Shown here: positions 17,831 through 30,463 of the stretch, piece after piece
How positions within the stretch are numbered: position 1 is the stretch's first letter
How the letters are laid out: each line of letters opens with the position of its first letter
Virus record (IMG/VR): IMGVR_UViG_3300050034_000187
Coordinates: 103,866-167,865 of that record
Direction: 5' to 3' (one strand)
Source: a virus
Length of the DNA: 64,000 nucleotides
Program-made: the position numbers and the translations under genes
Notes under the pieces: model-generated
The model's database searches: none
What the model saw: the letters and a program-made list of their open reading frames with translations, nothing else
What the model was told of the DNA's origin: nothing

Positions 17831-18733
17831 ATGGGAAAGACAAATTGGGGAGTTGTAATCGGACGATTTCAGTTGGATAATCTGACAGAAGCGCATAAGC
17901 TTCTTCTAGCAAAGGTTTCATCAAAGCATCCTCGGGTGGTTGTATTTATTGGAGTGCGGGCAGGTTGTTCAACTTCAAATGACCCTTTGGATTATGCAAC
18001 CCGAGAGAAGATGATTCGAGCAGAAGTTCCGAATGCTATTATCTCTCCACTTCGAGACGAGAAGTATGATGAGGATTGGTCACGTAATCTTGACAATAAG
18101 ATTCTTGAAATTACAGGATCAATTCCCGCAGATATTACTCTTTATGGTGGCAGGGATAGTTTTGCAACAAGTTATCTTGGACGATTTTCCGTAAAGGAAT
18201 TGGAGCTTGAAGTACCCATTGAAATTTCTGCAAGTAAGGTTCGAGCATTCATCACAGACAATGTGATGAGTTCAAGTGATTTTCGAGCAGGGGCAATTTA
18301 TGCTCTTCAGCAAAATTTTCCGAAGGTTTATACCACGGTTGATATTGCGCCAATTCACGGTGATGAAATTCTGCTAGGAAAGAAGAAGATGGATCGTGGT
18401 TGGCGCTTTCCGGGCGGATTTGTAGAAGTTCAAAGTGAAGATAGCTCTCTTGAAGAAAATGCTAAGCGAGAACTTCAAGAAGAGACTGCGTTGAGCGTTA
18501 GTTCTATCCATTATATTACTTCTCATGTGATAAATGATTGGCGATATAAGGGAAGTCCAGATAATATTATGACAACCTTTTTTCTTGCTCATACTACCGA
18601 TCTTGCTGCAAGGGCCTCCGATGATCTTGATTCTGTGAAGTGGTTCAAGCTTGCTGATGTAAATGAAGATATGTTCGAAGGGGAACATGCGCAACTTTGG
18701 AAGGCTCTGAAAAGTTATTTGGATAAGGAGTAA
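17831..18733 (+). CDS. nadM: Bifunctional NMN adenylyltransferase/Nudix ADP-ribose pyrophosphatase
   Basis: IGRFQ..TEAH, NDPLDYATR, ISASKVR, TTVD, FPGGFV and RELQEET. Confidence 0.9.
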   Translation: MGKTNWGVVIGRFQLDNLTEAHKLLLAKVSSKHPRVVVFIGVRAGCSTSNDPLDYATREKMIRAEVPNAIISPLRDEKYDEDWSRNLDNKILEITGSIPADITLYGGRDSFATSYLGRFSVKELELEVPIEISASKVRAFITDNVMSSSDFRAGAIYALQQNFPKVYTTVDIAPIHGDEILLGKKKMDRGWRFPGGFVEVQSEDSSLEENAKRELQEETALSVSSIHYITSHVINDWRYKGSPDNIMTTFFLAHTTDLAARASDDLDSVKWFKLADVNEDMFEGEHAQLWKALKSYLDKE

Positions 18734-18736
18734 TTT

Positions 18737-19063
18737 ATGCATAATAGGATTTGGTTTGCGGTGATGATATTTATGTTGTTGACTATCATCACCGGATGTA
18801 AAGATACTTCGGTTGTCGATGGAACACTATTATATAGGAGTATTGATCCCGCCCACGATGTAATGGTTATGAAGTCGGCTGGAAAACTTCAGTATGTTGA
18901 AACAGATCATATTGATGCCCGATATTATATTACCGTGGCAGGAATAAATTCGTCCGGAAAACATGTGCAAGAGAGTTTGGGAGTTCCAAAAGAATTCTAT
19001 GACTCTGCTCGGGCAGGAAATCATTTTGTATATTCAAATAAGCATTATTGGTGGAGTAAGTGA
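18737..19063 (+). CDS. Putative lipoprotein
   Basis: Hydrophobic signal ending in ITGC. Confidence 0.6.
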   Translation: MHNRIWFAVMIFMLLTIITGCKDTSVVDGTLLYRSIDPAHDVMVMKSAGKLQYVETDHIDARYYITVAGINSSGKHVQESLGVPKEFYDSARAGNHFVYSNKHYWWSK

Positions 19064-19201
19064 TATATTCTCAAAATGGATTTTTTCAAAGAGCAAGAGA
19101 AGTACATGGCAAAAAGTATCTTTGTGATAAGATGAATTGAAATAAAATTATTATTATGTGTCCAATTTATTTCAATTTTAAAGTTAGTACAGGAGGATAT
19201 T

Positions 19202-19447
19202 ATGAATCTATTCAAGAAAACTATTACCAAGATTTGCGGAGATTACAAACGAGTGCATAAGTGTACTCGTTGTGGCGCGGTAAATGCTAATTTAACCATA
19301 GATATTTGCTGGTCCTGTGGTAGCAATAGTAATTATTTTGTTGATACGGTTGCTCGGCATGTTACCGAATCTGTCTATGAATGGTGGAAGCCATTTTCTT
19401 ATTCTTCTGGAGAATATTATTGGGAAGAATCTCCATATCAAGATTAA
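19202..19447 (+). CDS. Small zinc-ribbon protein
   Basis: CTRCG ... CWSCG; GGAGG RBS. Confidence 0.65.
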   Translation: MNLFKKTITKICGDYKRVHKCTRCGAVNANLTIDICWSCGSNSNYFVDTVARHVTESVYEWWKPFSYSSGEYYWEESPYQD

Positions 19448-19494
19448 TTGCACGCAAAATATGTGCTATAATTAATAATGAAAAGGAGAAATAT

Positions 19495-20919
19495 ATGGGG
19501 CAGGACTTGGTAATTAACAATTTGGATTTGGTGGATTCTTACAAGGATACGCAATTTTCAATGTATCCGACGGGTGTGGAAACAATTTATGATTATTTCG
19601 AACCTCGCGGCGGAATTTATCCATACACTTGTTTATTTGGTTTGCAGTATATTTTGAAGCGATATCTAGCGGGGGAGTTTGTAACTCAGAATATGTTGAA
19701 TGAGCAAATTGCGATGGTAATGCCGAATCATATGGGTCCACAATTTAAGTACAATGTTGCAGGATGGCAATATCTTATTGATGAATACGGCGGGCGTCTT
19801 CCAGTTAAGATTCGGGCAGTTCAAGAAGGTATTCCAATTCCAGTTAAGAATATTGTGTTAGATATTGAAAATACTGGGGGAAATAAGACTGCGTGGATTC
19901 CCAACTTTTTAGAAACAATAATTCAGCAATCATGGTACGGTTCAAGCGTTTTTTCTACCAGTCGCATAATTAAGGAAACAATTCATAATGCTCTGGTAAA
20001 GTCTTCAGAAAGTATTAATGGAGAATATCCTTCTCTTCCTTTTCAGTTGCATGATTTCGGTTTTCGCGGAGTTAGTTCAGTAGAATCATCTGCAATTGGG
20101 GGAGCGGCCCATCTTTGCAATTTTCTAGGGACTGATAATAAGATTGCAATGAGTTTTCTCCATCAGTATTATAATGCTCCATATGGATGTGGAAAGAGCG
20201 TGGTTGCTTCCGAGCATTCCGTGATGGAATTTTCTCTCGGAGAAGAAAATGAAGCGGAAACCGTTTCAAGAATTTTGGATGAGAATCCTATTGGAATTGT
20301 TTCTATTGTTGGGGATACCTATAATATTTTTAAGTTTGCCGATAATATTATTGGTAAAGAATTACATGATAAGATTATGAATCGTCCCGATGGAAGTAAG
20401 GTTGTAATTCGGCCAGATTCTGGTGAGCCTACGGAGATTGTTTTGTATGTTCTGAATTCTCTTGCAAATAGCTTTGGATATACCGTGAATTCGCTTGGCT
20501 ATAAGGTTCTTAATCCACATGTTGGCGTTATTCAGGGTGATGGTATGACTCCTTCATCTATTAAGGAATTGTTTGATGTAATTCTTACGCAGGGGTGGTC
20601 TGCGGAAAATGTTCTCACTGGTTCTGGCGGTGGGTTGCTTCAACGCATTAATAGAGATAGTCAAAAGTTCGCTATTAAGGCATCTGCTGCGATTGTTGAT
20701 GGAAAGGTGCTCGAACTATTTAAAGATCCTATTACTGATCCGGGCAAGAAGAGCAAACGAGGATTTCATTCATTGGTGTTTCGAAATGGAAGTTATCAGA
20801 CCATTAATCGAGGCCACGATGAAATTGTTCCCGATGATCTGCTTGAACCTGTATTCGAAAATGGAGAAATTCTTCGTGATCTTTCATGGGATACCATTTG
20901 CAAGAATGCCGCACTTTAA
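19495..20919 (+). CDS. nadV: Nicotinamide phosphoribosyltransferase (NAMPT)
   Basis: DSYK, LHDFGFRG, ASEHSV, VIRPDSG, IQGDG and GSGGGLLQ. Confidence 0.95.
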   Translation: MGQDLVINNLDLVDSYKDTQFSMYPTGVETIYDYFEPRGGIYPYTCLFGLQYILKRYLAGEFVTQNMLNEQIAMVMPNHMGPQFKYNVAGWQYLIDEYGGRLPVKIRAVQEGIPIPVKNIVLDIENTGGNKTAWIPNFLETIIQQSWYGSSVFSTSRIIKETIHNALVKSSESINGEYPSLPFQLHDFGFRGVSSVESSAIGGAAHLCNFLGTDNKIAMSFLHQYYNAPYGCGKSVVASEHSVMEFSLGEENEAETVSRILDENPIGIVSIVGDTYNIFKFADNIIGKELHDKIMNRPDGSKVVIRPDSGEPTEIVLYVLNSLANSFGYTVNSLGYKVLNPHVGVIQGDGMTPSSIKELFDVILTQGWSAENVLTGSGGGLLQRINRDSQKFAIKASAAIVDGKVLELFKDPITDPGKKSKRGFHSLVFRNGSYQTINRGHDEIVPDDLLEPVFENGEILRDLSWDTICKNAAL

Positions 20920-20999: not shown

Positions 21000-21566
21000 G
21001 TGATGGAATATATAAATGATGCCAAAGAAGCTTCGCGATTAGAGAATGTCAAGGTATGGAAAAATATTAGCGGGAGAAATAAATTATTTCCGAATGAGCA
21101 ATATTGGAGTTTGATTGATGGAAATTCAAATGAAGCAGAGTCTCTTCTTAAGTCCGGTGCCATGTACAAATATCAAATGCATGGAATAACCAGAGAGCAA
21201 AATGATTTGGATTTATATGTCAGCAAGTATTCGATTGATGCATATTGCGGAGATTGGAATACTATTGTAAAATCTATAGGTATCTGCCCAAACGGAGGAA
21301 TTGTATATTTGGATTCAATTACCAATGTGAATAATCCAGAGGCATCCGAACTGGCAAATATTACTATGCAGTATAGTGGATTGCATACGTTAATTTGTGC
21401 TAATTATATTGCTGAAAATTATCATCATGGCGGTAAATTGGATGAGAGAACATTGTTTGAATTATTGACAATCCCGGCGGGATGGACTATGATTAATAAT
21501 AAGTATTATCCACCAAAAACTCATTTAACTCAGATGGTTACATACTTTTTTTGGAGAGAATTTTAA
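21000..21566 (+). CDS. Hypothetical protein, possibly SAM-methyltransferase-like fold
   Basis: YCGDW and IVYLDS resemble class I MTase strands; coupled to the helicase via TAATG. Confidence 0.45.
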   Translation: MMEYINDAKEASRLENVKVWKNISGRNKLFPNEQYWSLIDGNSNEAESLLKSGAMYKYQMHGITREQNDLDLYVSKYSIDAYCGDWNTIVKSIGICPNGGIVYLDSITNVNNPEASELANITMQYSGLHTLICANYIAENYHHGGKLDERTLFELLTIPAGWTMINNKYYPPKTHLTQMVTYFFWREF

Positions 21567-23509
21567 TGAAAATTTTTAGTTTGAATGTTGATAATTTATT
21601 TGATACAAAAGCAATGCCGCATGGTAGGTGGGAAGCAATTGATGAAGATCTATTGCAGAAAGTGCAAAATAAAAAGAAAATAAATACTGTTGCCTTTTCT
21701 GGTAATTATCAATGGCAAGAGGATGTTATTCATATGGTGGTGAATAACGATGTTTCTTTGATTAATAGTCCAACGGGTAGTGGTAAGTCGAATATTCTCA
21801 TGTGTTCTGCGGCAGTTTTATCATCGGTTGGATTTAAAACTATGATTATTTGCCCCCGCCAATCAATTGTGCATGGTTTTTTATCTAAAAATTTTATGTT
21901 TGAAAATAAAGAATACATCGGAAATGTATCGACAGTATCCAGCACAAATACGTATAATTCTATCAATAATATTAAAACATGGTTATTGAATAATAAAACT
22001 TCAAATACCATGGTAACAACTATTCCATCTTTTCTGGGAGCATTTAATTCATTTTCCGATGAAGAAAAGAATTATTTTATTGAAAATATTGCCCCTAAAT
22101 TTTGGATTGGAATTGATGAATTTCATCATGCGGGTGAAGAAGATACCGATGATAATACTACCGAGTTGGGAAAGATAGTCAAAGAATTACTTACAATGAA
22201 AATTCGTATGGTTGGCTGCACTGCCACTTATTTTCGTAACGATGATATGCCGCTATTTCCCGGTTTACATTTTGCTCTATTTGATTCAGTAACTAAAATT
22301 GGAAATCAATATGTGCGGGAATTTATTGATCATTTTTCTACTTTGAATCTTGATAGTTTCACTTTGAATATTTTTGGTTCTGATCTTGACCCAATGGATG
22401 ATCTAATTGCTAATATTCAAAATGAGCCAAATGAAGTGCATCTTGTTTGCATTCCGGCACTGCTTCCAACTCATGCATATTGCAATGAAAGTTGGAAAAG
22501 CAAAATTCGTTTCTCCTTTAAAGAATTATTTGGAGATACCTGCATTGATTTATTGGGAGAAGATAGGCATGATAATTTGAAGAAATTAATTAAGGCAAAT
22601 TGTGAATATGAAAAATCTAATGTTTTCCCATATAAGGTTATTTTGTCATGTGATATGGTGCGAGAAGGCACTGATATTATTCCGGCATCTAGATTGCATG
22701 ATTTGGCTCCTTCGAAAAGTGAAGTGAAGAAGCAACAAACTATTGGCCGGGTATTGCGGCGTGACCCTTGGGGAAATAAACACGATGCACAATACAATGT
22801 ATATTTTGCAAATTTTAATTCTTTTTATTCAGAAGAACAGCAGAAACAATTAGCATCTGATTTTATCATAGTTGCGATGGTTGGTCTTCTTACTTCATTG
22901 GATTATTTTGAACCCCCAACTATTAATCAAGCAGATAATAATATATGTGAAGAGGTATTTAACACTTCTGCAAAAGAAGTTAAAAGCTCGTTGATGACGA
23001 CATTATTGTTAGAGAATGGAGACAAAGAAAAAACAATTAATACGGTGTTGCAAAATAATAATATTTGTGGTATAAACAATAGGAAGAGAGCTAAAAAATA
23101 CCTTGAGAAATTGTGTATTCAATGGGAAAAAACTATTGATCAACCAGAAAAAGAAGTTGATAAAATCCCAACTAAGCAAGAAAAAGATAGTTCAACTATT
23201 GTAAAGAAACCTTCGGTGTGGTATTATTATCCAAATGGAGAAGTACAATACCTAAGTAAATTATATCCAGCATTGATGAGTAGCATTGGAAATTATTTTG
23301 GGAAATATACCGAAGGAATTATGCAAAAACTACGGCAGGATGTGAATTTTTTAAAAAGTGATCGAACGGATGCAATTTATGCAATTTATAAAGACCGATT
23401 CTCTGAGCGAAATAAAAAAGGAAAAACTGCTCGTAATAGAATGCGATCCAAGGGAATTCACAATATTTTAATTGAGGCGGGAAAACCTGAAAAAGATATT
23501 GACAGTTAA
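21566..23509 (+). CDS. Superfamily 2 DExH helicase (Res-like)
   Basis: PTGSGKS, IDEFHHA, CTATYFR, VREGTD and QTIGRVLR. Confidence 0.85.
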   Translation: MKIFSLNVDNLFDTKAMPHGRWEAIDEDLLQKVQNKKKINTVAFSGNYQWQEDVIHMVVNNDVSLINSPTGSGKSNILMCSAAVLSSVGFKTMIICPRQSIVHGFLSKNFMFENKEYIGNVSTVSSTNTYNSINNIKTWLLNNKTSNTMVTTIPSFLGAFNSFSDEEKNYFIENIAPKFWIGIDEFHHAGEEDTDDNTTELGKIVKELLTMKIRMVGCTATYFRNDDMPLFPGLHFALFDSVTKIGNQYVREFIDHFSTLNLDSFTLNIFGSDLDPMDDLIANIQNEPNEVHLVCIPALLPTHAYCNESWKSKIRFSFKELFGDTCIDLLGEDRHDNLKKLIKANCEYEKSNVFPYKVILSCDMVREGTDIIPASRLHDLAPSKSEVKKQQTIGRVLRRDPWGNKHDAQYNVYFANFNSFYSEEQQKQLASDFIIVAMVGLLTSLDYFEPPTINQADNNICEEVFNTSAKEVKSSLMTTLLLENGDKEKTINTVLQNNNICGINNRKRAKKYLEKLCIQWEKTIDQPEKEVDKIPTKQEKDSSTIVKKPSVWYYYPNGEVQYLSKLYPALMSSIGNYFGKYTEGIMQKLRQDVNFLKSDRTDAIYAIYKDRFSERNKKGKTARNRMRSKGIHNILIEAGKPEKDIDS

Positions 23510-23548: not shown

Positions 23549-25552
23549 ATGGCACTTGCCAAGAACAAAGAAACTTTTGAAGCAAAGATGAAAAAGTATG
23601 ATGAAATGCGAGAAGATAACGAAAAAAGTGCGCAGGTATTGGCAAAGATTGAACGTTCTCGGCAGCAGTATATTATGCAAAATCAGGGATTTGCGCAAGA
23701 ATGCGGTATTAATCTTGGTAATAGTGTTACGCGGGTTGTAACCTATGCCGGATTTGGACACATTCATGAGGTTAATACCAATCTTACTGGTGAACAATAT
23801 ATGCGGTTGAGTCATGAATATTATAACGATTGTGCCGAGGCTCTTCAGCCAATGGTTAAAAAGTTTTGGAAGATGATTAATGGACCTATCGGAATGCAAT
23901 TTCAAAAACTTTCCAATGATATTAATACATTGTATGATACAATTCGAAAAATTAAATCAATTGCATTTCTTCAAAAGAATGCCACAGCAGAAATGAAAGA
24001 AGTAACTGACAAGCAAATTTCTGATATTAAAGATCAAATTTCAGTTTTTCAAAATCTGAAGTCGGAAATCATTCTACCGATGTATGATGAACGTCGCCAG
24101 AATATGAAAAAGCACGCCGAAGAAATTCTTGCTCTGAAGGATGAGAAGAATGCAATCATTACCGGCTGCCGCGCCAAGATTCGTGAGCAAAAGCTTTATG
24201 CCGGAGCATACAAGGCAATTGAGGCGGCAGTAAATGCATCCTATAAGAAAGTAACCGATACCAAGAATATTGATCGGCTTGAAATGCGTTATCGTTATGG
24301 CGATATTCGTACTGGCAACCCACCTTCCGAAAGTATGCTTACTTATCCTAAATGGGATGGGGAAGGAACAATTTATAGCAATCAGATTTCAGTCAATTAT
24401 TCTGTCAAGGATATTATGAATCGTATTAATACAATTGTACAGATTCGTAAGTATAATCCGCAAGTAGATAATGAAATTTTTGGTATGAAATCGTCATTTA
24501 CCGAAAAGAAAGTTCCTCTTTATATTGTAGCAATTGCCGATGCAATGGTGCACGATTCTCGCGGCAAGGCAAGCATTAAAACATGGTATGAAATTCCGAT
24601 GTTTATGCATCGTCCTCTTTCAGATAATGATTCGGATTCTGTTCTTGGGGTGAAAGTGGTTCGAACAAAGGTTGGATTTAAGCATTCCTTTGAGATTCAG
24701 TTTTGTATTAAGAAGGAAGTTTTTTTTGATAGAATTACCAATAAAAAGAAGGAAGTTTTCATTACTCCCACCTTTGAAACATTAGAAAATAATGATCTTC
24801 AATTTTGTACTTGGACAGACAATAGTGGAACTTCTGGAAATGGCATTATTCCATCAAACCTTTTTGTTGATAAGAAGATGACACAAAATGCTGATTTGCA
24901 GCGGCGAATTCAAGAACATCTTTCAATGATGAAAAACTATCTTGATAGCAATAAACTTTATAATTCACCAGAATTGCAAGTATATGCTGTTGATATCACG
25001 TCTGGAAGAAGTCAGATGCGGTATGCTTTTCGAGATTGGACAAATAAACTTATTACTTCAGATAAAAGTAAATATGACGATATTAAGCATCTTCGTTATT
25101 ACGCCCGGGATCGTCATTTGGAAAAGTCTCCAGATGGTAAATTTATTCCATATGGCGGGGATTATGAGGCAATGGTAGATCACATCGCCACTAACATCGG
25201 AAAACTATTCCCCACCATGAATCAAACATCTACGTATGCATATGCAGCGTTGCTAATATTTAATGAGAGGTTCTCTCATTTGTATACCTTTTATACCGAT
25301 GCATCAAGTAAGGCAGAACGTCAACGAAAAGAAGAATTTCGAAAGTTTGCTAAGAGTATTTGTGATACTTATAATAATGTAACCATCACAAATGTTAATT
25401 TTGCAACCCGCCGAATTACTCCAACTCAAAAAATTATTGCTCCTTCTATTTTTGTTAGTGTCTTGGAAAGCACCGCTGGTAATAATGGCGTTCGCTTAAT
25501 TAAACTGAAGGAAAAGAAAGCGAATATCAGGAAGGTCCGCGCTAATTCATAG
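23549..25552 (+). CDS. cas12m: Type V CRISPR effector, Cas12m (V-U1)-like, predicted nuclease-dead and C-terminally truncated
   Basis: Adjacent to an array; QYMRLSHEYYND, LYAGAY, KWDGEGTI, IPMFMHRPL, VVRTKVG and QKIIAPSIF recall Cas12m motifs; RuvC-I/II acidic residues replaced by Thr. Confidence 0.75.
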   Translation: MALAKNKETFEAKMKKYDEMREDNEKSAQVLAKIERSRQQYIMQNQGFAQECGINLGNSVTRVVTYAGFGHIHEVNTNLTGEQYMRLSHEYYNDCAEALQPMVKKFWKMINGPIGMQFQKLSNDINTLYDTIRKIKSIAFLQKNATAEMKEVTDKQISDIKDQISVFQNLKSEIILPMYDERRQNMKKHAEEILALKDEKNAIITGCRAKIREQKLYAGAYKAIEAAVNASYKKVTDTKNIDRLEMRYRYGDIRTGNPPSESMLTYPKWDGEGTIYSNQISVNYSVKDIMNRINTIVQIRKYNPQVDNEIFGMKSSFTEKKVPLYIVAIADAMVHDSRGKASIKTWYEIPMFMHRPLSDNDSDSVLGVKVVRTKVGFKHSFEIQFCIKKEVFFDRITNKKKEVFITPTFETLENNDLQFCTWTDNSGTSGNGIIPSNLFVDKKMTQNADLQRRIQEHLSMMKNYLDSNKLYNSPELQVYAVDITSGRSQMRYAFRDWTNKLITSDKSKYDDIKHLRYYARDRHLEKSPDGKFIPYGGDYEAMVDHIATNIGKLFPTMNQTSTYAYAALLIFNERFSHLYTFYTDASSKAERQRKEEFRKFAKSICDTYNNVTITNVNFATRRITPTQKIIAPSIFVSVLESTAGNNGVRLIKLKEKKANIRKVRANS

Positions 25553-25665
25553 CAAATGACTTAGAAGATATTATGAATTAATTGTAACAAAATGTAACAC
25601 TACTTGGGGCGGTTCGCGTAATTCATTGCATAAGTAATTGATTGCACGAGAGTTAAAATGCCGCC

Positions 25666-25845
25666 CCAACAATAGGGTGCTCAATCCCTTTATAGTTGAG
25701 ACGCTGATATGTATTCGCCCAGTCTTGCCACTCAACACCAACAATAGGGTGCTCAATCCCTTTATAGTTGAGACCTAATTTATGTAAAATTTCTATCGGC
25801 TCACGCGGCCAACAATAGGGTGCTCAATCCCTTTATAGTTGAGAC
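25666..25845 (+). CRISPR. Mini CRISPR array: 3 identical 37-nt repeats, 2 spacers (35 and 34 nt)
   Basis: Repeat CCAACAATAGGGTGCTCAATCCCTTTATAGTTGAGAC at 25666, 25738 and 25809. Confidence 0.95.
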
Positions 25846-27377: not shown

Positions 27378-29358
27378 AACGTTGAATAGCGAGTTGAAGA
27401 ATTACCAGCATGCCTATTATGCTGGTAATCCCCTTGTTTCCGATGCAGAATATGATCAAAAAGAACAGCAACTTATTTCTTTGATCAAAAGCAATCCCCA
27501 ATATTCTAATATTGCCACGGTTCTATATACTGTTGGAACTAAGGATAGCTCTGGCCGAATTCCGCATACCCGTCCAATGAAGTCTATCGAAAATCATTAT
27601 ACCAAAGAGTCTGCGGTTGATGAAGCTCGGACATATGGCAAAATTGTTTTGGTTGAGCAAAAGCGAGATGGTATATCCAACGAAATTACCTACGTTGACG
27701 GGGATCTTATTCAATCTGTCACGCGAGGAGATGGCGCAGCAGGAGAAGATCAAACTCTCCAAACAAAGGCTTGCAAATTGATTCCGCAACATATCAATTC
27801 TCCCGTACACATTTTAAAAGTGCGCGGAGAAATGGTGATGCGCAAGGATGAATTGGAACGTATCAATGCTTTGCAAGAAGCCAAGGGCCTTCCTGCATAT
27901 GCCAATACTCGCAATCTGGTTGCTGGTACATTGAAAAATAAAGATACTAGGATTATATCTGAACGAAACATTTTTTTGATGCCGTGGGATGTATACTCTC
28001 CTAATGAAGATGATACTTTGCCAGATAGCGCATATGAAAGAATGCTTCTTTTGGAATCGCTCGGTTTTCCAAAGTATCAGGGATTCATTGCACACAATAT
28101 CAATGAGATTGAACCATTGATTGATAGGGTTCTGAAGTTCAATGAGACTGATTCCATCCAGAATGATGGCGTTGTAATTAAGACTGATTCTCATAAGCTT
28201 CGTAATGTACTTGGTGTAAAAACGAAATTTACAAACTTTCAGTGCTGCTATAAAAATCAGCACATTAGTGCAGAAACCACCATTCTTGGCATTGAATGGG
28301 GGGTTGGTCGGCAAGGAAAAGTTACGCCGGTATTATTGATTGATCCTATTGATTTGGGTGGAGCAATCACTTCTCGGGCAACCGGAAACAACGTTACTTG
28401 GATGAATGCTCTTGGTATTCAAAATGGATCGGTGGTAAGCGTGTGCCGCAGTGGAGAAGTAATTCCGATGGTGACCGAAGTTATCGATAATTCGCATGCT
28501 ACTCCCTTTGATATTCCAGAAGTATGCCCTGCCTGTGGAAATAAACTGGAAGTGAATTGCGATAATGGAATTACAATTCTATTCTGCCGCAATTCTTTAT
28601 GTGAAGGAAAAGCAGCAGAAACATTTTATTACATTGCAGATCGTGCTACTCTGGAAATTGATAATCTTGGAATTGAAATGGCAAAAGAATTGATCGAACA
28701 TCATATTACTAGTTTAAGTGATCTATTTGAGTTTGCGAATGTATCAATTAATGCTCCAGCAACTTATTTTAAGAACACCTTGCAGTTTCGTTCAGGGGCG
28801 AATGTAGTAAAAATGGTCAAGTCTATTCAAGATGCAAAGACTAGAGATTGGGATAAGTGGTTTGCTGCATTTGGTATTCCAATGGTTGGTCATACTCTTG
28901 GAAAAGTGATTGCTACAAAGTTGAATCTGCAAAGTGAGGATATGCAAGATCTTTGTGAGAAGATTCTAACTATTCAAGATGGGCAGATTGATGGTCTTGG
29001 AGTAGTTAAATTGCAATCATTGCGTACTTGGGCGAATGATGAAAAGAATGTTGCACTTTGCATTGCTCTTTATCATGATGGCGTGCGCCCACAACCATTA
29101 ACTAACAAGGAGAAAACTATGGATGGAAAATTGAATGATATTACGTTTTGTATTACCGGAACATTCAAGGAAACCTTTGGTTCTAGAACCGTTATTACTG
29201 GGCAGCTAGAGGCCCTTGGCGCGAAGTCTGTTTCTTCGGTGACCAAAGCTTGCAACCTATTGATCGCCGGAGACAAGGTGGGCTCAAAACTTTCAAAAGC
29301 TGAGAAGCTTGGAATCAAGATTGTGGGTGAAGAATGGCTGAGTTCGGCGCTGGACTAG
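27361..29358 (+). CDS. ligA: NAD-dependent DNA ligase
   Basis: SDAEYD, EQKRDG, VTRGDG, VRGE, NTRN, DGVVIK, Zn finger and BRCT GSKLSKA. Confidence 0.95.
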   Translation: MKELIETLNSELKNYQHAYYAGNPLVSDAEYDQKEQQLISLIKSNPQYSNIATVLYTVGTKDSSGRIPHTRPMKSIENHYTKESAVDEARTYGKIVLVEQKRDGISNEITYVDGDLIQSVTRGDGAAGEDQTLQTKACKLIPQHINSPVHILKVRGEMVMRKDELERINALQEAKGLPAYANTRNLVAGTLKNKDTRIISERNIFLMPWDVYSPNEDDTLPDSAYERMLLLESLGFPKYQGFIAHNINEIEPLIDRVLKFNETDSIQNDGVVIKTDSHKLRNVLGVKTKFTNFQCCYKNQHISAETTILGIEWGVGRQGKVTPVLLIDPIDLGGAITSRATGNNVTWMNALGIQNGSVVSVCRSGEVIPMVTEVIDNSHATPFDIPEVCPACGNKLEVNCDNGITILFCRNSLCEGKAAETFYYIADRATLEIDNLGIEMAKELIEHHITSLSDLFEFANVSINAPATYFKNTLQFRSGANVVKMVKSIQDAKTRDWDKWFAAFGIPMVGHTLGKVIATKLNLQSEDMQDLCEKILTIQDGQIDGLGVVKLQSLRTWANDEKNVALCIALYHDGVRPQPLTNKEKTMDGKLNDITFCITGTFKETFGSRTVITGQLEALGAKSVSSVTKACNLLIAGDKVGSKLSKAEKLGIKIVGEEWLSSALD

Positions 29359-29621
29359 GAATTGATGATGTTAATGGGGTTCCATTGAAAATTGGAACCC
29401 CAATTAAATTTGAAATAGAAGACGTGGGCTGCTATTATGGGTACATTAAATCTTTGATTTATGAGGCTGAGGGCCATCATGTTTTTGATATGGATAGTAG
29501 CGCAGGTTCTAACGGAAGATTTTACAAGTCCATTAATATTTCGTGGCACGATTGGGTTCGTGCGTATCAGTTAACTGTTATTTCAGAGGAAGAATATGTG
29601 CAGGGAATAATGGAGAGTTAA
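29334..29621 (+). CDS. ME-tail family small protein (array B)
   Basis: DVNGVPLKIG; ISEEEYVQGIMES. Confidence 0.75.
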   Translation: MAEFGAGLGIDDVNGVPLKIGTPIKFEIEDVGCYYGYIKSLIYEAEGHHVFDMDSSAGSNGRFYKSINISWHDWVRAYQLTVISEEEYVQGIMES

Positions 29622-29622
29622 T

Positions 29623-29898
29623 GTGAAAATTGAATTAGGTATTAGTGATGTTAGGGGGGTTCCATTAAAAATAGGAACCCCAATTAAATTTGGAATGGAA
29701 TCTGAATGTTATGGACACATTAAATCGCTGATTTATAAATATGATTCGGTATATCATGTTTTTGATATGGATAGTAGTGTATGCCCAGATGGAAAATTTT
29801 ACAAGAATGTTGCTAGTTCGTGGGCCGAGCACGTTAGTTTGTATCAGTTAACTGCAATTTCAGAGGAAGAATATGTACAGGGAATAATGGAGAGTTAA
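29623..29898 (+). CDS. ME-tail family small protein (array B)
   Basis: Close paralog of the previous gene; ISEEEYVQGIMES. Confidence 0.8.
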   Translation: MKIELGISDVRGVPLKIGTPIKFGMESECYGHIKSLIYKYDSVYHVFDMDSSVCPDGKFYKNVASSWAEHVSLYQLTAISEEEYVQGIMES

Positions 29899-29899
29899 T

Positions 29900-30163
29900 A
29901 TGTTTAAATTTACAGATATGCATGAAAATGAATTACATAATGGAGATTACATTGCATTTGGAAAATTTCCTAAATTATATAGAAAAATAGATCATTTTGA
30001 GCAATCCGCAGATTTCGCATATATGTATGATGATAATACTAATATTTTGTGGTCCATTTCTCTGCTGCGCGTGGCAGATGACTGGATGATGACGTGCGCT
30101 CGTGCAAGTAATCTAGAAAAGGTTTCGGAAGAGGAATATTTGCAATGGATAATGGAGCAATAA
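29900..30163 (+). CDS. ME-tail family small protein (array B)
   Basis: DMHENELHNGD; VSEEEYLQWIMEQ. Confidence 0.8.
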   Translation: MFKFTDMHENELHNGDYIAFGKFPKLYRKIDHFEQSADFAYMYDDNTNILWSISLLRVADDWMMTCARASNLEKVSEEEYLQWIMEQ

Positions 30164-30164
30164 A

Positions 30165-30463
30165 ATGAATGATGAATTGGGAATTAATGATGTTAATGGT
30201 GTTCCATCATATATTAAATGGCAATTTTCAGATTGGAAAAAAGAAAAAATATAGAATATTGTTGGGGAATAATTACTTCGTTGATCGGTGAATGTGAATT
30301 TGCTGGCATAGAAAAATATCACTTCTTTTCAATAAGCAATTCAAATTTATCGATAATCAGGTTTTCTAAGCCAATTCTTCTTTCATGGGATCTCTGTATA
30401 TCGACATGTAGGATGACTGTTATTTCGAAAGAAGAATTTTGGCAACTTGTAATGGAGAACTAG
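30165..30463 (+). pseudogene. Frameshifted ME-tail family gene (array B)
   Basis: MNDELGINDVNGVP start is in a different frame from the ISKEEFWQLVMEN tail. Confidence 0.6.

Follow-up and report, generated by a model that had tools for sequence, protein, structure and literature searches.

A phage operon in which a nuclease-dead Cas12m derivative follows conserved helicase and methyltransferase-fold genes

By definition a class 2 CRISPR effector is a single protein; to our knowledge, the ones that recruit partners do so either for transposition, as in the case of Cas12k, or, as has been proposed, to borrow Cas3. Cas12k of the V-K CAST systems, which recruits partner proteins, and TldR, a nuclease-dead TnpB, are RNA-guided binders whose dead RuvC domain accompanies a non-cutting job, and in this respect they resemble the phage effector described here.

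Cas12m, the effector of type V-M, silences without cutting according to the available sections of PMC11013384 and PMC10442227. As far as the text of PMC10442227 was available, the published Cas12m clades carry the RuvC triads HEK/HQK, HDD, DED/NED and DED/DND/NED, and in Cas12m2 the RuvC site and a zinc-finger groove hold the displaced strand, with a His-Arg pair of the WED domain (H269/R270) reading the crRNA scaffold. Inactivation within V-M is gradual in the accessible part of PMC10691335, where branches V-U24, V-U43 and V-U44 are fully dead, and inactivated V-C, V-M, V-O and V-P are listed in the excerpted text of PMC12669027, whose section 9, to the extent available, names no helicase or methyltransferase accessory genes for type V-M. 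In a preprint (10.64898/2026.09.14.751636), as far as available, the D-E-D triad of a phage Cas12m is intact.

The available text of PMC10910872 proposes a Cas12m-Cas3 hybrid, which resembles the present locus in combining Cas12m with an SF2 helicase; the term “cas12m” is absent from eight supplementary files of that paper. Type IV-A, as far as the accessible text of PMC11656645 describes it, carries the DinG helicase and inhibits transcription, and shares with the present locus nuclease-free RNA-guided targeting, carriage by mobile elements, a helicase and the lack of an adaptation module. It is, however, a multi-subunit class 1 Csf complex with DinG, whereas the locus here encodes a single Cas12-type effector. 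We know of no methyltransferase-fold partner in type IV-A. Al-Shayeb 2022 (Cell) reportedly describes many phage type V families, nuclease-dead ones among them, and an earlier catalogue may thus include the effector clade itself; our literature search, in which neither that paper nor Wu 2022 was compared, returned no account of a dead Cas12m that has a helicase and a methyltransferase as partners.

The effector lies on a 195,761-bp virus contig (IMG/VR record IMGVR_UViG_3300050034_000187; 53% complete), of which a stretch of 64,000 nucleotides, hereafter the window, was analysed. A preliminary description of this DNA had pointed to a 667-residue ORF (P0001; 23549-25552, plus strand) with a CRISPR array 113 nt downstream, and had read it as a phage Cas12m-like effector that is RuvC-dead, lacks the zinc finger and acts alone as a further-reduced, binding-only protein, with host defence genes or rival elements as its suggested targets. 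The ORF and its array are confirmed, the effector is phage-borne, and the record has a terminase match. Of the sequencing runs, the two that match this DNA best come from peat metagenomes, and one may be its source. Absent from that account is the conserved operon of which the effector is the last gene. A methyltransferase-fold protein of 187 aa (P0063; 21003-21566, plus strand, with an alternative GTG start at 21000) is followed by an SF2 helicase of the ResIII/DEAD type (P0074, 647 aa; 21566-23509, plus strand), with the stop codon of the former overlapping the ATG of the latter by one base. The effector gene comes next, followed on the same strand by a 113-nt leader (25553-25665) and a mini-array of three 37-nt repeats and two spacers (25666-25845). 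The operon thus consists of three genes in about 4.9 kb including the array, and among its neighbours are genes for a nicotinamide phosphoribosyltransferase, a Nudix hydrolase and an NAD-dependent ligase.

The derivation of the effector from Cas12m holds up at the level of both profile and fold. A profile built from zinc-finger-less members alone matches Cas12m 23vw with an E-value of 3.7e-47, and the predicted structure contains the WED domain, REC1 and the REC2 coiled coil, and an RNase H-fold RuvC domain, as judged against the structures of MmCas12m/Cas12m2 (8HHL, 8HIO and 8HHM), GoCas12m (8PM4), 23VW and UnCas12m4a (23VU). The WED domain carries a His354-Arg355 pair, conserved in 18 of the 21 aligned clade proteins, its equivalence to H269/R270 of Cas12m2 being inferred from the motif and not from residue-level superposition.

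The catalytic losses are equally consistent with the preliminary description. Threonines (T406 and T614) occupy RuvC sites I and II of the effector and the third residue is absent, so that its triad fits none of the four published Cas12m clade types. Across the 21 aligned clade proteins on which the residue counts rest, an acidic or His residue is found at the RuvC-I site in none and an acidic residue at the RuvC-II site in one, and RuvC-III is missing throughout, whereas 10 of 10 other proteins have Asp there. The structure model stops at the position of Cas12m2 residue 551, and the last 60 residues of the effector contain no Cys; among 35 proteins scanned with the zinc-finger domain PF07282, no clade member was matched but seven canonical Cas12m-like proteins were. 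One protein, P0029, carries four Cys in the count for the zinc-finger region. The losses are common to all 21 aligned clade proteins, and a DNA run of another study matches the locus in 29 of 30 bins with no difference listed; a pseudogene or chance truncation is therefore ruled out. Reduction in this sense does not extend to overall size, since at 667 aa the effector compares with 567–663 aa for canonical Cas12m-like proteins: it has a clade-specific N-terminal extension (residues ~1-57), matched by no Cas12m structure, and a helical insertion in RuvC.

The effector clade comprises 22 rows (SH-aLRT 100) in a quick tree with SH-aLRT support and no bootstraps, and the alignment and tree omit eight partial matches (P0015, P0018, P0021, P0022, P0024, P0027, P0028 and P0037). 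Five of the 22 rows have a readable locus, and all five fall in one 14-member subclade (SH-aLRT 99), with eight rows lying outside it. Effector identity among the five loci is 21–28%; a word-indexed protein search for effector relatives returned the query alone, and a scan of IMG/VR with the query returned none. Adjacent to the clade in the tree, but outside it, lies P0026, a Cas12m-like protein without the zinc finger that is a possible intermediate.

Compared with type V-M as described, the locus shares the fold with its REC2 coiled coil, the WED His-Arg pair, the repeat type and the order of effector then array, and DNA cleavage is predicted to be absent here too. It differs in that the effector has no triad residue, zinc finger or RuvC-III, in the added extension and insertion, and in the conserved helicase and methyltransferase-fold genes upstream. 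The protein is predicted to bind DNA in the manner of Cas12m, but it departs from V-M in its triad, its missing zinc finger and its conserved partner genes, and the most fitting place for it is that of a multi-gene derivative of V-M. Even under a modest reading, it would reveal parts of Cas12 that are dispensable for RNA-guided binding. Taken alone, an effector that is dead and truncated would be moderately interesting; it is the conserved helicase and methyltransferase-fold partners that make the operon a strong experimental candidate, and its compactness makes it directly testable in E. coli.

These partners recur well beyond the window. Four outside loci (L001, L002, L003 and L090) were fetched with effector queries, and the link to the helicase was therefore not selected for. 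In all five loci an SF2 helicase gene ends 39–86 nt 5' of the effector gene, L002 contributing only the C-terminal 247 aa of its helicase, and in the four loci with enough upstream DNA (the window, L001, L003 and L090) a methyltransferase-fold gene lies 5' of the helicase gene, encoding a protein of about 190–240 aa (187 aa in the window). The methyltransferase stop overlaps the helicase start in L001 as it does in the window, and in L090, whose effector is 21% identical to that of the window, the methyltransferase-fold protein and the helicase form one ORF, a natural two-gene version of the operon. An indirect sixth case is provided by an effector (P0012) and a small protein (P0072), each of which comes from one 7,956-bp JGI contig. 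As a control, neither partner was found within 1.2–2.3 kb upstream of the effector gene in any of seven zinc-finger-bearing Cas12m-like loci, and the methyltransferase profile, which detected both of its positive controls, matched none of the seven whole records, most of which are incomplete.

This conservation bears on whether the effector silences unaided, as the preliminary description had proposed; the partners would then perform upkeep (crRNA maturation or protection, effector recycling, help with spacer acquisition) or simply travel as a cassette. Canonical Cas12m silences partner-free and processes pre-crRNA independently of RuvC, as the available text of PMC11013384 and PMC10442227 has it, and the same reading would sit well with the CRISPR-free members of the helicase family described below, with the lack of any Cas1 match across the 195,761-bp record and with the L003 repeats that sit right where the methyltransferase gene ends. 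The tight same-strand coupling is nevertheless kept at 21–28% effector identity, with stop/start overlaps and one fusion, the partners are absent from all seven zinc-finger-bearing loci, and loss of the RuvC site that in Cas12m2 holds the non-target strand is expected to weaken silencing of this kind. We regard unaided silencing as rather doubtful; of the preliminary description, the reduction in RuvC and zinc finger stands, but the stand-alone role is probably an incomplete account.

The helicase itself appears to be an intact motor. The window protein matches Pfam ResIII (E 1.8e-11), DEAD (E 1.5e-9) and Helicase_C, and carries the motifs PTGSGKS, DEFHH, TAT, REGTD and QTIGRVLR, which are intact in all four complete CRISPR-linked orthologs. 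The window helicase has only about 45 residues ahead of its Q motif, and no HD or other nuclease domain was found with Pfam or PADLOC in the four CRISPR-linked helicases. The helicase thereby differs from the type I-C-like Cas3 helicase-nuclease of the hybrid in the available text of PMC10910872: it is ResIII-like and without an HD domain, it is accompanied by a methyltransferase-fold partner, and its effector has no zinc finger or RuvC-III. Unlike in type IV-A, its resemblance to the DinG profile is weak (E 9e-4 over 86 aa).

An intact SF2 motor could also serve indirect destruction of the target, in which the R-loop and helicase would yield single-stranded DNA or stalled forks for host nucleases, in the manner of Cas3 but with a borrowed nuclease, and the hybrid proposed in PMC10910872, as far as its text was available, lends this idea a precedent. 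The CRISPR-linked helicases, however, match no nuclease domain, their matches to Cas3 profiles are weak, short and placed around the ATP-binding motifs, and the neighbourhoods listed have no nuclease gene in common, which makes destruction by this route very improbable.

The helicase family also extends to a phage without the effector. ORF100 of the Tunturiibacter phage Tunturi_5 (PP885688.1) aligns with 55% of the query at 26.6% identity (E 3e-22) and matches the helicase profile with an E-value of 5.6e-69, but the complete Tunturi_5 genome has no match to the methyltransferase or effector profile, and repeat-rich small proteins follow the helicase instead. These are two short-tandem-repeat proteins (ORF99 and ORF98; L091:8836-10691) that take the place of the dead Cas12m; that they are protein-based targeting modules, later replaced by an RNA-guided one, is speculation. 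At least 12 further helicase homologs came from a search that scored 7,997 candidates and missed known orthologs; four of these, when aligned, have the same C-terminal domain as the helicase but a different Walker A. As this domain also occurs in such homologs, it is no dedicated Cas adaptor. A helicase scan of IMG/VR had 37 unrelated helicases among the matches listed.

The AlphaFold2 model of the small protein (pLDDT 91.3) has alternating strands and helices consistent with a Rossmann-like fold, and the protein's matches in the ESM Atlas, where both sides are predicted models, include class I SAM methyltransferase clusters (TM 0.69–0.74 over 161–174 residues) and unnamed phage clusters (TM 0.77–0.80). 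An alignment of 13 homologs, P0063 included, contains 30 invariant positions, among them D39, Q58, H60, G83, W85, D104, N134 and Q177. Members of the family are rare, and the two loci recovered from IMG/VR both adjoin the effector, although the query was built from those loci and the two are not independent of it. In methyltransferases, motif I is defined by GxGxG and motif IV of the DNA methyltransferases by DPPY/NPPY or by PC after strand 4. Neither the glycine-rich motif I nor any of these forms of motif IV is present in the alignment of the 13 homologs, in which LxDxxSxE comes after strand 1 and D(S/T) after strand 4, and an invariant Cys95 sits before strand 4, not after it. Pfam gave no methyltransferase match in any of the 13 members, and a PDB sequence search with the small protein returned nothing significant. 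With motif I and the DNA-methyltransferase motif IV missing, any methyltransferase activity is putative; most likely the protein serves the helicase as a structural or SAM-binding module.

A bolder reading is natural RNA-guided methylation, in which the dead Cas12m would address the site, the helicase would open or track along the DNA and the SAM-fold protein would mark the DNA or transcript, leaving a lasting mark that silences the target or flags it for host enzymes. The predicted fold, the invariant positions, the rarity of the family, its place beside the effector and the fusion to the helicase in L090 are in its favour; against it stand the missing motifs and the lack of Pfam and PDB sequence matches, and the substrate could as well be a protein, an RNA or a small molecule, if the fold is active at all. 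We consider this unlikely, and equally unlikely its consequence that jumbo phages encode a programmable epigenetic writer, with a nuclease-free Cas12m derivative delivering a helicase-methyltransferase to chosen DNA. If it were true, this would be the first CRISPR system with methylation as its output, as opposed to cutting, blocking or transposition, and, should the methyltransferase act on DNA, a natural RNA-guided epigenome editor.

The explanation in which we place moderate confidence is a non-cutting, helicase-assisted silencing operon, whose effector is predicted to bind the target and would bring in the helicase and its partner, so that the target is blocked or remodelled. Judging from Cas12m biochemistry, the effector would load crRNA and form a PAM-dependent R-loop without cutting, and the helicase with its partner would then be recruited to extend or enforce the block. 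In type IV-A, the DinG motor loads at the R-loop and moves with ATP; by analogy the helicase here would load at the R-loop and translocate with ATP so that the block spreads. In Cas12m2 the displaced strand is kept in place by the RuvC site and the groove of the zinc finger, and loss of the zinc-finger/RuvC-III end could thus free that strand for the motor. Spacers may be supplied by host Cas1-Cas2, and the outcome would be gene silencing or replication stalling of a rival element or the host. On this analogy the operon is most likely a class 2 analogue of type IV-A with DinG; a Cas12m lineage that lost its entire catalytic end and is coupled to an ATP-driven helicase and a methyltransferase-fold protein would, if true, give type V a new functional output and be a convergent parallel to type IV-A/DinG. 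Against helicase-assisted silencing stand the lack of a protospacer for any of the arrays searched, the partly CRISPR-free helicase family and the array that interrupts the operon in L003. A predicted complex of effector residues 1-658 with helicase residues 325-647 scored 0.00, with the partner fold uncertain, and speaks neither for nor against an interaction.

None of the arrays searched yielded a convincing target. For the window spacers, the best matches in their own 195.8-kb contig (23/35 and 21/34) are no protospacers, the first 22 nt of spacer 1 had no matches in IMG/VR, and the array had only chance matches in phages (E 2–5). The L003 array had no target in plasmids and phages, the L090 array none in phages, and the L001 and L090 arrays had only short matches in their own records, the best of which (18/18 to the 3' part of an L090 spacer, at G003:C1:202737-202754, E 0.019) is probably due to chance. 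The 68 spacers of relatives share no 16-mers with the window's genome.

The arrays lie 3' of the effector in four of the five loci; in L002 the DNA stops 146 nt past the effector stop. The window array has three identical repeats, with spacers at 25703-25737 (35 nt) and 25775-25808 (34 nt), and no second CRISPR-like array was found in the 195,761-bp record; L001 has seven repeats, L090 about 22, and L003 43 plus five upstream. These five form an array (L003:2513-2819) between the methyltransferase-fold and helicase genes, and the methyltransferase ORF runs into the first of them. The four clade repeats differ in sequence, but two crossing stems are predicted for each (with no shuffle control; the first stem of the L001 repeat has 3 bp, by eye), which presumably resemble the Cas12m crRNA pseudoknot. 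When a pattern derived from the repeats of the window, L001 and L003 was used as a query, it retrieved 17 stretches of viral and 28 of genome DNA, among them seven distinct loci with zinc-finger-bearing Cas12m-like genes, and because it retrieves such canonical loci, the window repeat is of the Cas12m-locus type. Five of the viral matches (L005, L006, L013, L015 and L017) are Cas12m-type repeat arrays with no effector match in their 4-kb flanks, and several effector-less arrays share one 80-kb record with a canonical Cas12m elsewhere.

A long hairpin in the window leader (~25605-25668) closes on the first repeat. The fold of 25553-25702 has a z-score of −3.30, equalled by 1 of 200 shuffles, and the leader by itself one of −1.05. 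Hairpins also directly precede the first repeat in L001 (7122-7140; z −1.6), L003 (7029-7076; z −2.4) and the L090 leader (z −4.1), with mononucleotide shuffles in each case, and may represent a leader signal or a transcript-processing element. Wobble-rich pairing between the window leader and repeat raised the idea of a tracrRNA, but such pairing was not seen as a common feature of the other leaders.

Metatranscriptome contigs from three runs of one study cover 4–8 of 30 bins, at the helicase end and effector start, and one of them spans the junction between the two genes, at most a possible sign of expression. In the DNA of the second study, one contig joins across the array at 25665-25809 with 143 nt skipped and 37 letters in common, which reflects either repeats collapsed during assembly or a variant with a single repeat. 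Downstream, at 29334-30463 of the window, there are three to four paralogous small ORFs (81–95 aa) spaced by about 265–300 nt and with DNA in common. The region directly 5' of the operon (17831-20919) encodes a cytidyltransferase-like/Nudix fusion and the nicotinamide phosphoribosyltransferase, which together resemble a phage NAD salvage module.
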